DNA from: Isurus oxyrinchus
Lineage: Eukaryota
Reading direction: 5' to 3'
DNA length: 64,000 bases
Assembly: GCA_026770705.1 (NCBI GenBank)
Contig: JANJGN010000210.1
Coordinates: 620,001 to 684,000 of the forward strand
Under the pieces are notes generated by a model that worked only from the letters and a program-made list of their open reading frames with translations, was not told the origin of the DNA and did not search any database. Shown here one piece after another: positions 48,789 through 64,000 of the stretch. Made by a program: the position numbers and the translations under genes. Positions within the stretch are counted from its first letter, which is position 1. The number at the start of each line of letters is the position of its first letter.

Positions 48789-48873
48789 CCTTTCAATTTA
48801 AACCTGAAAGTTGACAATTATTTGAACTCTTTCCGTGCCTTCCATTACTGTGTCTATAATCCCGCCATGTTCA

Positions 48874-49271
48874 GGTTTTTGTACAGCTTTCTCTGTGCTC
48901 TGTATCACTGTGTGTCTATAATCCCACCATGTTCAGGTTTTTGTACAGCTCTCTCCGTGCTCTGTATCACTGTGTGTCTGTTATCCCACCATGTTCAGGA
49001 TTTTGTGCAGCTCTCTCCGTGCTCTGTATCACTGTGTGTCTGTTATCCCACCATGTTCAGGATTTTGTGCAGCTCTCTCCGTGCTCTGTATCACTGTGTG
49101 TCTGTAATCCCACCATGTTCAGGTTTTTGTACAGCTCTCTCAGTGCTCTCTATCACCGTGTGTCTGTAATCCCACCATGTTAAGTTTTTGTACAGCGCCC
49201 TCCAGTTTCTGTATCACTGTGCACCATGCTGAGGTTTTTGTACAGCTCTCTCCGTGCTCTATATCACTGTG
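48874..49271 (-). repeat. Tandem array of seven 23-spacer recombination signal sequences (mostly 62-bp period)
   Basis: Heptamers start at 48906, 48968, 49030, 49092, 49154, 49215, 49265; nonamers start at 48874, 48936, 48998, 49060, 49122, 49183, 49233; every spacer is exactly 23 bp. Confidence 0.95.
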
Positions 49272-49571
49272 CTGTGCGCCGACTCAGTTCACAGTAATAA
49301 ACTGCGGAGTCGCTCAGTTGTAATTTGGAGATCTTCAACCGGCTGATTTTCTCGGTAGAATCGGTAGAAGCAGAAATTCTCCTCCAGGCAGCATTTTCTT
49401 TATTCTCCTCTCCAGAAATGTGTCCCTGAAGCAGATATTCCGGAGCCTGTCCTGGGGACTGACGGTACCAGTGTACTGTGCAGAACCCTGAATATCCCCA
49501 GTTTAAAGCAACGGTGTCACCGATGGCAGAGATTTCTAGAGGCAAAATCCGGGAAATTATGGAACTGGAAT
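49272..49571 (-). CDS. Leaderless supporting TCR-delta V segment of NAR-TCR; first canonical Cys replaced by Trp
   Basis: Phase-1 acceptor tttttttatcctccag; (D)SSSIISRILPLEISAIGDTVALNWGYSGFCTVHWYRQSPGQAPEYLL..LQLSDSAVYYCELS; CDR1 Cys; consensus CACAGTG-23-ACAAAAACC follows. Confidence 0.88.
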
Positions 49572-52465
49572 CTGGAGGATAAAAAAATGAACACAGCCAA
49601 TATTTGTCCAGGAGAATTTGTCAATCGCGTGAATAGCTCTGCTTTTTGCAGTAATTTTATTTGCTGGAAGCCTATTTGAACCTTGTTCACTGTTATGAAA
49701 ATATGACCAAATGGGGAATTAGGTGATGTTTTATTTTACATCGCGAGTTCTTCCGATCAGGACTGCACTGTCTGAATTGGTGTTGGGGATAGATTCAATA
49801 GTAACTTTCAAACGGGTAATGGGTCTGTGCTGGAAATGTAAATAAAAATATAGAGCAAGGAGAAAATTCATGGACAGTGGGAACAATTGTATTACACTTT
49901 TAAAGGGTCAGCGCCTACACAATGGGCCAAATGTCATCCTTCCGTGCTGGATAATTCTATGAATTATATTACATTCCGGTTTCTACTTTCCTTGGTGAGA
50001 CACATAGCTGGGGGAGCATTTTATGATCAGTGAGTCAATCAATTTCCAAAAAAAACATGTTTGTTGCAGAGAAACACAGCTGTGTGGCATCACTGCGCAC
50101 AGCAAGATCCAACACAAACTGACGGGATTCATCAGCACCGATCGGGCCAAACCGAGAGTGAGCATCTCTCGTGATGAAAGGTCAATCATTTACTGCGGTT
50201 TAAAACGGCTTGGGAATTTCTATCTGCCATTTGCTCTATTTCTATATGTTCTATCAATAGGGTCCACTTTTCTCCAGTTCAGCTTAATTTCGAACACATG
50301 CAATTAATTTCATTTTATTTCTTTAAGTTCACATTCCCTTTATTTCATGTTAATTTTGTGCTGCTTGTGCTTTTTGCAATCGTGGGAACTTGTCCCAAAT
50401 TTTCACAGTTGTCGGTTGGGCTCAGTCTGTTCAGTTTCCGCAGCGATTTTAACTGTTACTCACTGGGAACTGCCTCTTCTAGCTCTCTGACAATTTCAAT
50501 TCCTTCCGCCCATTGGTTGATTCTCTCCTGGGTTCACTGGGCGGAGTTCTCTCTCAATTTTACATTACAGAGGAAGAAGAATGCAAAAGAGGAATGGGCC
50601 ATTCAGCCTTTGTATATAATCAATTCCAGCTTGACCTCACCAGTAACCTAACTGACCATTTCCATCCAGCTCCCTGTGTTGGTCTGTTCCGTTCTCCCTC
50701 CTGAAATTTCAAGTGTTCCAATAAATATATCAATACTATCTGCCCCGACCTCTCCCTGTGGCAGCAAGTTCCACATTCTAACCTGCCTTTGTTTAAATTC
50801 ATTTGTCTTAAATGTTTTATTTGTTCTGTTAGTTACTGTCATATGTTGACAGCTATTGCTTTGCACTCAGCCACAAATGAACAATTTCTCCACCATAAAA
50901 CAGTTCATGATTCAAAAGATTTCTATGGATTCTCCTCTTGGTTCTGTTTTCCAGAAAAAAGAGACCCAGCCTGTTCAATCTTCGCAAAGAGATGTGGATT
51001 GTTGCTGATTTCTTTTCTCAGGAGTGTAAAAAATCAAAGCAGAGAATCCAATCAATAGAAACAGGAGCCCCCATATCACCTTTCAAACCTGCTCAGCCAT
51101 TCAGGAATATCCTGGCAGATTTATAACCTCATCGTCACATTCCCGCACTCTCCCCATATCCCTGATCTTTTAGTGTCCGCAAACCTATCAAATATTGTCT
51201 TCAAAGCAAACAGATACTGAACATCCACAGCCCTCTGAGTTACAGAATACCACAGATTCACAACAATGGTTCTACTGAAGATGCTTTTTTCCTTCTCAGT
51301 TCTAATGGATGACTCTTTACTCTGAAGCTGTGACCCCGAGTTCTATACTCCTCAGTCTGGGGAGACACCGACCCAGAATCTCCCCTGTCAAAACTCTTCA
51401 GTATATTGTATGTTTTCATGAGATCACCTCTCATTCTTCTAACTCTAGGAAATATAGACAGAGACGACTAAATCTCTTCCCATTGGACAATCCCTTCATC
51501 TCAGGAATCAGTCTGATGAAACACTGTTACACTCCTTCCAATGCAGATTGATCTCTCTTCTGTAAGGAGAACAAAACTTTACACAGCATTCCGGACTGGA
51601 GTCCATTTCAGTCCTTCCCTCCATAAACCTCGTCCAACAGCTTGGGGTCGGATTGTACTTTAAAAGGCACCCAGAAATCATTCAATCCTTCCCTCCCGTT
51701 CGATTCCTTATTTCTTGCTGGTTCTCAATGAACATTCCCACAGTTTCCTTCTGTCCCTATTCTCCTTTATAAGATTAATGCATTACCCTGACTCGCTCAC
51801 TGCACTGTGCTGTTTCAATTCCCAGTAATCAGGGATACAGATAAATTATAGCAATCCCATCTCTCAAACATCTACATTCAATATAGAAAAGTGTCTGCAG
51901 ATCCAAACTTTCACATTTCAGTCTGAGGGCGGAAAAGCAGGAAAGTGATTCGTTTTATGAATTTCAGTCATTGATTGTCCAAAAATAAAATTCCACCTGG
52001 ACCTACATCAGGGTTTTATTTCTGAAGTCCGTGGTGTCACTCTCCCGTTTTTCTCCCGGGTCAGGTACTGAACGAGCCGCTGCAGGTATCCGAACTGGCC
52101 GAATTTGTGTTGAGTTTATTCACCCGGTGCCTCATGCACATTGCGTGGCTTGGACTGCAATCTGCTACCCAGGAGAGAGCTCTGTGACCCCGCCCCCGAG
52201 CTCTAAGGGACAGACAGAGTTCCCTCGGTCACAGTTAACACCAGGTGTGGAGTCCGGATTGTCAACAATCTGCGCTCATTAAAAGCGATTCAGCGTCTGA
52301 GGGTCCATGATGTTGATATTGTCCCCGATGTGCCCGTTAAACCAATAATGGCCCAGAATCCATCAACTCCCACATCCCACCCAAACTCCACTGATATCAA
52401 TAATAAACTGTCTGTGAACATTACCCGGGACAGTCTGTAACCCGGCGGGGTTTGGAGTCACTTAC

Positions 52466-52557
52466 CGGCTGTGACAGTCACCAACGTCCCGGATCCATCC
52501 ACATATTTAATACATCACCACAGTGACACCGCTCTCAGTCTCCCCGGTACAACAACC
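52466..52557 (-). other. NAR-TCR J segment (52466-52518) with 23-RSS (52519-52557)
   Basis: Translates CIKYVDGSGTLVTVTA followed by phase-1 donor G|GTAAGT; CACAGTG-23-ACAACAACC; IgNAR-type DGxG in place of FGxG. Confidence 0.9.
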
Positions 52558-52871: not shown

Positions 52872-52944
52872 GGTATTTGCTCAGGTCTCTCCTACTGTGA
52901 CTCCCTCACCCATCCATACAGTGTTACAAGTCAGTATAAAATCC
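52872..52944 (-). other. NAR-TCR D segment (core 52900-52916, TGGATGGGTGAGGGAGT) with 12/12 RSSs
   Basis: J-facing CACAGTA-12-GCAAATACC and V-facing TACAGTG-12-ATAAAATCC; lies between V and J and satisfies the 12/23 rule. Confidence 0.85.
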
Positions 52945-53284
52945 CCCGGGTACTTGGGGAGATTTGGGGACATTAGTTAAACAGCGGGGACTGCGGTTCC
53001 CGGTTCCAGCTGTTAGACCAGGATCACATCTGGTGTTCGAGGTTTGTAACTGGGATCAGTCGTTCCCAATCCTCACTCACTGACACCAATCCCGGGAAAA
53101 ACATCACCATCCGCACACACTCGGCATTTATAAAACTCAAGATGTTAACAGCAATAATCCAATCTCATTATAAACTAGACTGTGGGGCAGACGGTCCTGT
53201 GGGGGAACTGAAGCGGAACTGTGGGGGTTTAATTGCAGACTTCACTCCACTTTTCCATTTGTTTCTGTGACAATCTGCAGTGAG

Positions 53285-53322
53285 AGTTTTTGTATCGCGG
53301 GAAGCCGAGGCCCATCACTGTG
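53285..53322 (-). other. RSS of NAR-TCR V (22-bp spacer)
   Basis: CACAGTG-22-ACAAAAACT directly after the V exon. Confidence 0.9.
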
Positions 53323-53596
53323 TATCAATAGTATTGAGCTTTACAGTAATAGGTGGCGGTGTCTTCAACTCTCACATCCCGAATTTCCAGAGAAAATGTC
53401 TTTTCTACTTTATTCACCGACGCAACAAATCTCCCCGCGCGGGGATCGGCTCCCACAATGTCCCGGGTTTGTCTGAAGAAATGCCCATTTTTAAAATAAT
53501 AATAATTATCATTGAAAACACAGGTGATGGTGAGAGACTGACACTCCTTCCTGGTCACCGCTGCCGGGGTCTGTGCCACTGACTGACTGAAAGAGC
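53323..53596 (-). CDS. NAR-TCR variable segment (IgNAR-like V lacking CDR2)
   Basis: SFSQSVAQTPAAVTRKECQSLTITCVF..GRFVASVNKVEKTFSLEIRDVRVEDTATYYCKA; only 58 aa between canonical Cys; extra FR1 Cys; acceptor ttaatttccag. Confidence 0.9.
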
Positions 53597-53718
53597 CTGG
53601 AAATTAAACAGAGAGAGTTTAATGGAGCATCAAAGCCGAACCACAGAACTGGTTTAAAACCCCGGACAGTGTCTGTATTTGAGATGGATACGGACAGCTT
53701 TGTTTGATCTGCACTCAC

Positions 53719-53761
53719 GGGGTAAACAGACACACAGAGTGAAAAGAAGGAGGATTCCCAT
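53719..53761 (-). CDS. Leader (signal peptide) exon of NAR-TCR V
   Basis: ATG-MGILLLFTLCVCLP then C|GTGAGT phase-1 donor, in frame with the V exon across a 122-bp intron. Confidence 0.88.
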
Positions 53762-54636
53762 CTGCCTGGAGCTGAGGGTTTATATGACGGGGAGCTGGAG
53801 ACTGCAGCCTTGGAGTGCACTGGGAGACCGGATCTCAGATCTGGACTGAAATACTTTAGGGGGATCGAGTTAATTTGCACAGGGCAGTTTCGCTGAGATT
53901 ATTGATGGGCCGCATGGTTCCCGGATAGCTGGCTAAGTGTTGTGGAAATAAGAGACAGTTTTATAAAAGGAAACTGCAACTTTCTGACCTTTCGTTTGGA
54001 TAGTGATCCGGATGTGAAAGCCCCTCCCACAATACTCTGGTGTACAGGGGTGGAGAAGGGGAGCTTTTCTTTCTGCCAGTTCTGCTGCCGCCTTCCTTTC
54101 CCCACAGTAATGAACTGGGAGGTGGGTGCATGTCTTTGTATTGGGTGGTGTTTGTTAAAGGTGGAATGTGGGCCCAGGACACCGAGAGAAACCCCACGAC
54201 CCACTCTTACTCCAACATTCCGGAGATTCTCCCTGTCATTTAGCCAAATGCATCCTGCACCAGCCCTGCGATGGGTTACATGTAAAATGGCGTTTAATTT
54301 CAGCCATGTTTGACTTCCAGATTGGGAAAATTCAGAATTTCTGTTAGCAGTAACTGAGATGGAAACGGCACTCGGGAGGACAACAGACCTTGGGGGGGCT
54401 GTGCTCTTGGGGCTCTCTTTAAAGATGACATCACAACATTCTGTTCTGAAAACTGTTTATGGTGTATGATTATCTCTCAACCAGCAACAGCAATACTCAA
54501 TCAAATAAACCCCGTGACAAGGCCGAGGTCAGAGGCTTCACGAAGCTGACACCGGAGTTCGGGAAAAAGCTGCTCAACGTTGCGGGCAGGTACGGAAATG
54601 CCATTAAAAGGCGAAACGGAAATTAAGAACTGCAGC

Positions 54637-61238: not shown

Positions 61239-61366
61239 GCTCTGTTTCACTGTATCTGGAATCCCCACTTTGTTCAAGTTTTTATAGAGCTCTCTCCGCG
61301 CTTTGTATCTCTGTGTGTCTGTAATCCCACCATGTTCAGGTTTTTGAACAGCCCTCTCCGTGATCT
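61239..61366 (-). repeat. Second, degenerate tandem RSS array running into the gap
   Basis: Same 62-bp unit: nonamer-like at 61277 and 61339, heptamer-like at 61248 and 61309. Confidence 0.85.
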
Positions 61367-61454
61367 AACCCTGAACATTCACAGCTTCAAGTAACGGTGT
61401 CACCGGCAGCAGATGTTTGTAGAGGCGGGCACTAAGACACCAGGGAACTGGAAT
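61367..61454 (-). pseudogene. 5' remnant of a second supporting TCR-delta V
   Basis: DSSSLVS*CPPLQTSAAGDTVT*SCECSG aligns to 49484-49571; the rest of the V and its heptamer are deleted. Confidence 0.85.
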
Positions 61455-62848
61455 CTGGAGAATTAAAAAAGAACATTATTTGTTTGTTTAGCCATTGTTT
61501 ACCTGGGAGAATTTGTCAATGACATGAAAGGTTCGTTTTTCTAAACTTGAAGCAAGCCTGTTCCAACCGTATTCGCCGTCATTGAAATGTGATTAAGTGC
61601 AGAGATGATAATTTTTCCAATCTGCACTGCGTGGTCAGAATGGGTGGTGCGAACGCACTCAGTGGGAACTTTCAAATGGCTGATGTATCTGTACTGCAAC
61701 AAGAAAAATGTACAGCCTCATGAGGAAATACATGCGTTTTGGTAAAAATTAGATTGCACTTTGAAAGTGATAGCATCTCCACGATGGGCCGAATGTCATT
61801 CTACCTTTTCGCATTGTTCTCTGTTGTATATTGCATTTCTGCTTCTATTTTCCTTGGTGAGTGACACCCGGATGGAACAGTTTCCAAAAAATGATTGTAC
61901 GGAATAATCAGCATCAGCATCACTGTGCACAGCATGATCGAAATGAAAGTGTTTGTGATTAATCAGCATTGATTGAAACTTCTCTCTTCCCCGTTCTAAT
62001 GGCCGACCCCTTATGCTGAAACTTTGGCTCCCAGTTATAGACTTTCCAACCTGAGGAAACTCCCACCTAGAACCTTCCCTCTCAAGCTCCTTAAGGATAT
62101 CATGTGTTCTCATGAGATCGCCCTCATTGCTGTAATTTCCAGGAAACACAGGCCCAGTCTACTCAATCCCTTCCCATAGGACATTCCCTTTACTTCAGGA
62201 ATCAGTCTGATGAACATTTGTTCCAAAGGATGTACAACCTTCCCTAAGTAAGATACCAGACTTTACACAGCATTCCAAACTGAAGTCCTTCTCTCCATAA
62301 ACATCGCCCACCACCCTTTGCTCGGATTATACTTTGAACAGCCCAGAGATCATCAAATCCTTCTCTCCCATTCGATGAATTATTTCTTGCTGGTTCTAAA
62401 TGAACATTCTCTCAGTTTATATTTTTTTCCTTATGTCCCTGTTCTCCTTTATAAGATTAATGCATCATCCTCACTCTCTCACTGCACTTTGCGCTTTTAA
62501 TTCACAGTAATCAGGGATACAGATAAATTACAGCAATCCCATCTCTCAAACATCGACATTCAATATAGAGAAGTGTCTGCAGTTCCAAACTTTCACATTT
62601 CGATCTGAGGATGGAAAAGGAGGAAATGATTGGGTATATGAAGACAATTGAAAGAAATGGCGGGTAAATGACCCGACTGTCCGATCATACCCTGTTCCTA
62701 AATTGAAGCCTGCAACGGAAAAGGTCCCTTAGAAATCGTTTTTTTTTTTTAGCTTCGATGTGATTGAAACGATGTTGATCACAATAATAAGCTGACTGTG
62801 AGCAATATCCAGCACAGTCTGCAACATGCGGGCTTCAGAGTCACTTAT

Positions 62849-62926
62849 CGCCTGTGACAGTCACCACCATCCTGGATCCATCTACATAATTAGCACACCA
62901 CTCTCGATCTCCCAGGTACAAGAACC
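62849..62926 (-). pseudogene. Second NAR-TCR J, donor mutated (GT to AT) and heptamer deleted
   Basis: YVDGSRMVVTVTG aligns to 52466-52557; spacer and nonamer ACAAGAACC retained. Confidence 0.85.
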
Positions 62927-63233
62927 ATCGACAACTCAACCTGCCAGGAAATCATCATCGGGCAGTAGACACCTCACAATTATACAGCAGGTTTAAATGA
63001 ATAATCAATATTCAATGTTTCAAAGTCTCTATCTGTTCAAACTGTTCTTTCTGAGACCCTGAGCTCTGAGTAAATGGTCCCAGGAATGAGATATTCGCTT
63101 CATATAAACCGGGAAAAATATCAAAGAAAGATTACTGAATGGTGAAAATTAAAATGAAATGTAACCAGATTGCAACGATATTAACATCAACCCGACAATT
63201 CACTATCCGGGCCCGGAGAATTAATATTTACAA

Positions 63234-63292
63234 AGTATTTGCCCTACTCTCTCCCACTGTGACTGCCCGTGTAACAAGTTAGTATAAAATAC
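63234..63292 (-). pseudogene. Second NAR-TCR D with a deletion across the V-facing heptamer
   Basis: Aligns to 52872-52944 with 14 bp missing. Confidence 0.8.
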
Positions 63293-63447
63293 CCACGGGT
63301 ACTAGGTGAGATGTGGGGACATTAAACAGCGGGGACTGCAGTTCCCGGTTCCAGCTGTTAGAACAGGATCACATCTGGTGTTAGGGGTTTGTAACTGGGA
63401 TCAGTTATTCCTAATCCCCATTCAGAAATGAGAAAATAAATTACTGA

Positions 63448-64000
63448 GTTAGAGACGTATGCAATAAGGGTACAACTGTAATCATGGGTGACTTTAATCT
63501 ACATATTGATTGGGCAACCAAACTAGCAATAATACTGTGGAGGACGATTCCTGGAGTCTGTACGTGATGGTTGTTTAGGCCAATACGTTGAGGAGCCAAC
63601 TGGAGAGCAGGTTATCCGAGACTGGGTATTGTGCAATGAGAAAGGATTAATTAACAACCTTGTTGTGCAGGGTCCCTGGGGGAAGAGCTACAATAACATG
63701 ATAGAATTGTTCATTAAGGTGGAGAGTGAAGGACTTGAATCCGAAACTAGTGTCCTGGATCTAAATAAAGGGAACTGCAAGGTTATGAGGGGAGAGTTGG
63801 CAATGATGGATTAGGGAACCTTACGAAAAGAGCTGACAATGGATCGGCAATGGTTAATATTTAAGGAACGTATACAACAATTATTCATTCCCGTCTGGCG
63901 CAAACATAGTATGGGAAAGATGGTTCAACCATGGATTACAAAAGAAATTTGGGATAGTATTAGATCCAACGAGTAGACATAAAAAATTTCCAGAAAAAGC
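63448..64000 (+). mobile_element. CR1 endonuclease region interrupting the second cassette between D and the expected V
   Basis: IMGDFN and DWVLCNEKGLINNL; homology to 52560-53070 stops at about 63420. Confidence 0.85.

Follow-up and report, generated by a model that had tools for sequence, protein, structure and literature searches.

Can RAG, acting in germ cells, cut antigen-receptor gene segments and reseal them in place, so that the scar is inherited? This question was raised by the window (the whole stretch of DNA analyzed, 64,000 nucleotides), the minus strand of which carries two related cassettes: cassette 1 (48.85-53.8 kb) and a decayed paralogue (61.2-63.4 kb) that is about 76-79% identical to it. 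In the latter (the dead cassette), the initial annotation had noticed deletions across the cut sites of V, D, and J, and regarded them as possible germline RAG scars. Until now, the evidence for RAG activity in the germline has consisted of joined shark Ig genes and a single hybrid inversion.

Organization of the two cassettes

The NAR-TCR cassette of cartilaginous fish was reportedly described by Criscitiello in 2006. By its anatomy, the dead cassette is a member of this family, the marks of which are, in the available text of PMC1845163, a NAR V with a cysteine in the a-b loop and no tryptophan of WYRK, and a leaderless supporting V with a cysteine in CDR1. The NAR V of cassette 1 contained a leader and the a-b loop cysteine, and had no tryptophan in the WYRK position (translation; Pfam V-set match). 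The NAR V of the clade to which the dead cassette belongs (the scarred clade; see below) aligned at about 81%. In cassette 1 and the dead cassette, their own D and J were present between the NAR V and the supporting V; the leaderless supporting delta V had the CDR1 cysteine in cassette 1 and its relatives, and CDR1 was deleted in the dead copy. The NAR V and RSS of the dead cassette were located ~2.2 kb past the end of the window (G000:C210 near 686.2 kb), behind an inserted repeat. The features are as follows.

53284..53800, minus: cassette 1 leader, NAR-TCR V exon (Pfam V-set), and RSS
52872..52944, minus: cassette 1 12-RSS, 17-nt D (52900-52916), and 12-RSS
52466..52557, minus: cassette 1 23-RSS and J
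49272..49572, minus: cassette 1 supporting V (Pfam V-set; CDR1 Cys present)
48850..49271, minus: cassette 1 tandem array of seven heptamer-23-nonamer units, 62 bp each
63420..64000, strand not assigned: interspersed repeat between NAR V and D in the scarred clade, which we take to be LINE-like
63269..63292, minus: D 5' 12-RSS of the dead cassette (nonamer 63284-63292, 12-bp spacer, and 3 remaining heptamer bases; 4 at the cut site gone)
63262..63268, minus: D coding remnant, 7 nt (lesion junction 63269/63268, no microhomology)
63234..63261, minus: D 3' 12-RSS of the dead cassette, intact
62895..62926, minus: J 23-RSS of the dead cassette (nonamer and full 23-bp spacer, heptamer gone; junction 62895/62894)
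62847..62894, minus: J coding remnant (~7 nt missing at the 5' end; splice donor GT to AT)
61367..61454, minus: 5' remnant of the leaderless supporting TCR-delta V (FR1 to start of CDR1)
61339..61366, minus: supporting V RSS remnant, last 19 bp of the 23-spacer and nonamer (junction 61367/61366, 223-229 bp deletion)
61239..61338, minus: additional 62-bp units of the tandem 23-RSS array that follows the supporting V of the dead cassette (next heptamer 61315)

Tandem 62-bp 23-RSS arrays were also found behind the supporting V of many relatives (1-9 units detected per cassette). Cassette 1 is probably impaired as well: its supporting V (49272-49572) encodes tryptophan at the position where relatives encode the first canonical cysteine, and its NAR V (53323-53800) has a stop in the 3' flank and small deletions near the leader. 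The minus strand of the window also contained five C2H2 zinc-finger arrays (7.5-8.7, 12.8-13.8, 30.2-31.2, 34.8-35.7, and 41.8-42.4 kb) with 5-11 fingers in the longest frames. Elsewhere in the genome, IgH V-D-D-J clusters were interspersed with NAR-TCR cassettes on one contig (G000:C26 24-40 Mb), in agreement with the linkage reported in PMC12227049.

Deletions at the RSS borders of the dead cassette

Pairwise alignment with cassette 1 reproduced the losses that the initial annotation had described: 14 bp at J (the heptamer and 7 coding bases), 14 bp at D (4 heptamer and 10 coding bases), and exactly 223 bp at the supporting V (49483-49261, from CDR1 to 4 bp inside the spacer). The sequences said to survive were indeed present: the 23-bp spacer and nonamer of J, the nonamer and 12-bp spacer of D, and 19 bp of the spacer and the nonamer of V. 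All three junctions spanned the heptamer/coding border, with both ends in their original orientation. The description of the V, D, and J cut sites as deleted was correct for three of the five RSS borders, but not for the NAR-V 23-RSS, located outside the window and present in 15/15 copies of the scarred clade, or for the D 3' RSS, both of which were intact.

In comparison with its relatives, cassette 1 is an atypical reference for these lesions, and two details of the first description depended on it. The ACA/TGT microhomology at the J junction (3 bp) was confirmed against cassette 1, but was found in only 5 of 112 J segments family-wide, all of the cassette 1 type; when 68 of the 112 were used as the reference, the microhomology was 1 bp. 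Similarly, the cryptic CACAGTA was located 3 bp from the V break in cassette 1, but among 56 intact supporting Vs, it was at 3 bp in 10, at 9 bp in 37, and absent in 9; no nonamer accompanied it at either spacing. The V deletion was 229 bp against the majority-type supporting V, and ended in the tandem array of 62-bp RSS units, such that this end need not be in the first RSS.

The coding bases lost numbered about 10 at D, 6-7 at J, and >200 at V, the value for D hinging on the ancestral D length (11-20 nt in the family; 17 nt in 33/69). Joins in the NAR-TCR family lose 0-14 nt; coding-end trimming at D (~10) and J (~7) was within this range, and that at V was far beyond it. No P or N bases, which not every open-and-shut joint needs to contain, were evident at the D or V junction. 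One unexplained G was present at J: it was the first base past the junction, was seen before the same motif in no intact J type, and could be a non-templated base. A two-step interpretation of the J alignment, though less parsimonious, would leave the border uncrossed.

Inheritance and single origin of the lesions

The J pattern matched 138 times in the genome from which the window comes; the 100 listed matches were analyzed together with 65 additional stretches, and the 38 unlisted ones were only partly recovered. The same J junction was detected in 15 loci among the 100 J matches listed, the same V junction in 15/15 of these copies, and the D junction in all 8 that keep D, the other 7 having lost the whole D region. 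The scarred copies formed one clade with 100/100 support (13 distinct rows; stem 0.14), and also one clade on the V-exon tree; its members were about 11% diverged, and five were located on one contig. In contigs of a second species, the bases missing from the dead cassette were likewise absent at each junction: X7 record 21 spanned that of J (6 gaps), X8 record 30 that of D (2 gaps), and X7 record 22 that of V (49 gaps, all explained by other listed indels). Somatic lymphocyte events and assembly errors, the possibility of which we regard as negligible, are excluded because identical junctions were shared by diverged copies, including the five on one contig, and by a second species; the germline status that the initial annotation had assumed was thereby confirmed. 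Each lesion is one old inherited event on the stem of the clade.

The scarred clade also shared the repeat insertion between V and D, two further large deletions, which touched no RSS, and about ten small indels. The splice donor of J was changed from GT to AT in 14/15 copies. The cassette may have been killed by the lesions or by these other disabling changes of the same clade.

Frequency of deletions at RSS borders

About 15 shared indels were placed on the clade stem in 2,955 aligned columns (5 clade rows compared with 23-29 others). When the 11 small stem deletions were placed at random, the probability that at least two would hit a border was 0.004-0.006. In the D-J block, 40 distinct deletions of at least 2 bp were re-placed in 61 rows; joined and D-less copies were left out, and L062, L070, L090, and L109 were dropped because they had no anchor. 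The probability of two border deletions was then 0.0065 for any one branch and 0.028 for any one copy. In contrast, no family-wide excess of small border-spanning deletions was observed: two were seen against 1.33 expected if borders were neutral (P 0.39), and two against 0.96 in the D-J block alone (P 0.25). The value of 1.33 is an upper bound, as borders in live copies are protected by selection. The indel enrichment at heptamer borders anticipated in the initial annotation was found within this single lineage (P 0.004-0.028), but not across the family (P 0.25-0.39). The test is post hoc, and the D and J lesions may have arisen separately. The borders lost at D and J comprised one 12 and one 23 signal, but 6 of the 10 possible pairs are 12/23.

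No second independent border lesion was found among the other split NAR-TCR cassettes, and no heptamer-destroying deletion among the 50 IgH clusters read by eye of 95 matches to a short JH motif, a sample picked by a well-kept J, which leans toward healthy clusters. Ordinary losses of the same size occurred in RSSs away from the cut site (14 bp in L078 and 8 bp in L076).

Several further candidates were discarded. The NAR-V border does not carry a fourth scar: the heptamer was present in 15/15 copies, and the 10-nt flank specific to the clade is within the family range of 7-17 nt. The losses in L120 (2 bp from the D heptamer, and 1 bp where J begins) and in L142-L145 (5 bp bordering the supporting V), as well as J types without the first 1 or 3 bases, all involve short repeats and were not counted. 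Microhomology did not discriminate between RAG and decay; 0-1 bp was common among 82 background deletions.

Germline joins and inversions in the same families

At least 150 NAR-V loci were catalogued (49 further V matches were only partly recovered): 85 split, 44 V-D joined, and at least 21 VDJ joined, the last value being a floor because the catalogue missed L177, L179, L180, and one in L222. Thus, 65/150 loci (>40%) were germline-joined. Some of the copies on unplaced contigs may represent the second haplotype; C26 alone had 38 split, 18 V-D, and 13 VDJ loci. No D-J-only join was seen among the 150. The joined cassettes were located as follows.

G000 C26 23-40 Mb; C140, C151, C152, C210, C242, C301, C2529, C3745: V-D or VDJ joined cassettes
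L064, L072, L118, L150, L191, L199; L153, L157, L176, L187: joined examples

Fifteen of the 21 VDJ joined copies had an open frame through J and a cysteine in CDR3. The V-D label required 10 changes on the V-exon tree, at least 6 of these being forced by supported branches, a count that gene conversion may inflate; the VDJ label required 1-2. Junction sequences suggest at least six V-D join types. Some joins kept the whole V end and the whole D with 2-11 extra bases, and others were trimmed by up to 14 nt. By their likeness to the shark germline Ig joins with RAG-type processing and the horned-shark germline hybrid-joint inversion, as given in the available parts of PMC2193156 and PMC2193153, respectively, the NAR-TCR germline joins may be regarded as RAG products. 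Germline RAG activity on this family is well supported by the 65 joined loci.

Among the IgH clusters, 12/50 were joined or inverted. In L239 (G000:C26 near 36.125 Mb; one copy), the D2-J interval was inverted with both heptamers exact; each junction had gained 2-3 bases, namely palindromic CC following a GG coding end and 2-3 bases on the J side. This pattern is what would be expected of a hybrid-joint pair swapping 12 and 23 signals. L239 demonstrates that non-standard RAG outcomes can stand in this assembly, and can leave signal ends untouched.

Other structures in these families were recorded. In L150-L152, hardly any D was left and the NAR V end all but abutted the D 3' 12-RSS, making them candidates for a heavily trimmed V-D join or a V-to-signal hybrid joint. 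In several IgH clusters (L227, L228, L233, L237, L241, L239, L244, and L269), the V end next to an intact heptamer differed in both length and sequence from the common type; such clusters often also carried a germline join, and their V ends are candidates for heptamer-sparing cut-and-reseal. The whole D1 block was absent from L257, and its V and D2 signals were kept. NAR-V 3' flanks were of 34 types (7-17 nt). Outside the scarred clade, indels were ~7-fold denser in the D coding sequence and first 12 J bases than in non-coding columns (18 events/29 columns and 51/603, respectively; P 1.5e-9; 53 split cassette rows), an excess that can be due to alignment noise, slippage, diversifying selection, or heptamer-sparing cut-and-reseal.

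Origin of the lesions

Lewis and Hesse are said to have described the open-and-shut joints of V(D)J recombination in 1991. The D and J lesions look like such joints, of which they are candidate members. In the proposed mechanism, RAG in a germ cell would bring the D 5' 12-RSS and the J 23-RSS together as a pair and cut both. The two RSSs share their orientation, and a standard join would consequently invert the segment. End joining would instead close each break on itself once the ends had been trimmed, with the loss of 4 bases from the signal end and about 10 from the coding end at D, and of 7-8 and 6-7, respectively, at J, and the scarred cassette would then have been multiplied by segmental duplication.

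The preservation of signal ends that is expected of an open-and-shut joint was not observed: 4, 7-8, and 11 nt were lost at D, J, and V, respectively, compared with 0 and 0 in L239. Such loss can occur in open-and-shut joints, but is the rarer outcome. In the available text of the sources, the joining of RAG signal ends normally costs no bases (PMC2193825), trimming can occur at TCR-delta signal joints (PMC2192893), and RAG breaks, once released, may be repaired by open-and-shut or error-prone end joining (PMC6620893). As far as the text available goes, somatic open-and-shut joints are low-frequency products (PMC2213516), and those with signal-end loss are a somatic outcome that would block later rearrangement (PMC2193590).

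The main competitor is ordinary decay, in which end joining or slippage made three deletions in a long-dead pseudogene, two of them hitting cut sites by chance. The family-wide border count matched expectation, the long stem (0.14) carried many indels, and the lesions were like the background in size and microhomology; the signal-end loss was unlike L239, and no repeat case was present in the 50 IgH clusters. On the other hand, both border deletions fell on one branch (P 0.0065-0.028 allowing any branch or copy), and germline joins are frequent in the NAR-TCR family. Selection favoring ordinary deletions that silence the signals of a harmful or wasteful dead cassette would explain two border deletions on one branch without RAG; this appears very improbable because 30/83 scored split V exons were frame-broken (scarred clade included) and no border deletion was found outside the clade, and because the clade's NAR-V and D 3' signals survive. 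Odds were estimated by setting the family-level chance (0.007-0.03) against a rough value of 0.03-0.08 for a double scar after at least seven germline RAG events, the latter being a judgement rather than a result, with a discount for the lack of clear added bases. Collectively, ordinary decay is a serious contender to which we give somewhat less than an even chance, while a RAG origin of the D and J lesions, whatever made the V deletion, is slightly favored.

This does not extend to the supporting V, for which a RAG scar is unlikely. Within the RAG reading, all three lesions may have been made by RAG, with that of V caused by long resection or by a second cut at the cryptic CDR1 heptamer. All lesions were on the same stem and in the second species, and the V deletion had no microhomology and ended 11 bp from the heptamer start. 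However, an end within 11 bp of a heptamer start has a chance of about 0.18 in a 62-bp array; this, the length of the deletion, and the two other large deletions of the clade off RSSs make the V deletion weak evidence. Moreover, the >200 coding bases lost far exceed the loss in family joins, and the cryptic heptamer is mostly 9 bp away; it also has no nonamer, for which reason a double cut at a cryptic RSS was rejected. We consider a common RAG origin of the three lesions quite improbable; the supporting V deletion is probably ordinary pseudogene decay.

Implications

If the RAG origin of the D and J lesions is true, a fixed open-and-shut scar would be the missing germline outcome, and RAG can kill as well as build receptor genes in evolution. 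No germline open-and-shut scar or germline-joined NAR-TCR was found in the literature searched, outside the scope of which were most subscription papers and the original NAR-TCR and open-and-shut papers. The NAR-TCR family offers a dated, multi-copy record for measuring the frequency and mode of germ-cell RAG activity. A broader proposal, which we regard as doubtful, is that germ-cell RAG has repeatedly edited the shark NAR-TCR locus by standard joins, hybrid inversions, and cut-and-reseal, with heptamer-trimming reseals having killed the scarred clade and heptamer-sparing ones having fed the ~7-fold flank indel excess. On this view, RAG would act as a heritable mutator of the genes it targets, a TCR locus among them.

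Comparison with known systems

In the open-and-shut joint as presented in the available parts of PMC2213516 and PMC2193590, a coding end returns, with its orientation unchanged, to the signal end from which it was cut, and heptamer-border bases are lost, as at the candidate joints of the dead cassette; these known joints are from somatic cells and substrates, whereas the lesions of the dead cassette are inherited, exist in many copies, lack 4-8 signal bases, and show no clear P/N bases. The germline-joined shark Ig genes and the horned-shark inversion (available text of PMC2193156 and PMC2193153) similarly represent RSS-directed changes fixed in the antigen-receptor germline of sharks, but are joins and inversions in Ig loci, whereas the dead cassette belongs to a TCR-delta-type locus and would have been resealed without recombination. 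The arrangement of leader, NAR-type V, D, J, and then a leaderless supporting delta V with a CDR1 cysteine is that of the known NAR-TCR cassette; the copy in the window differs in being dead, and its family in being large (at least 150 V loci, 65/150 pre-joined) and in having tandem RSS arrays (1-9 units detected) on many supporting Vs. Marsupial TCR-mu is likewise a three-domain TCR chain with a germline pre-joined V exon; in the accessible portion of PMC7615758, it is the membrane-proximal V that is joined, probably by retrotransposition, whereas in the NAR-TCR family described here, the N-terminal NAR V was joined in place, with the leader intron kept, by several independent events, and the dead cassette of the window is itself unjoined.
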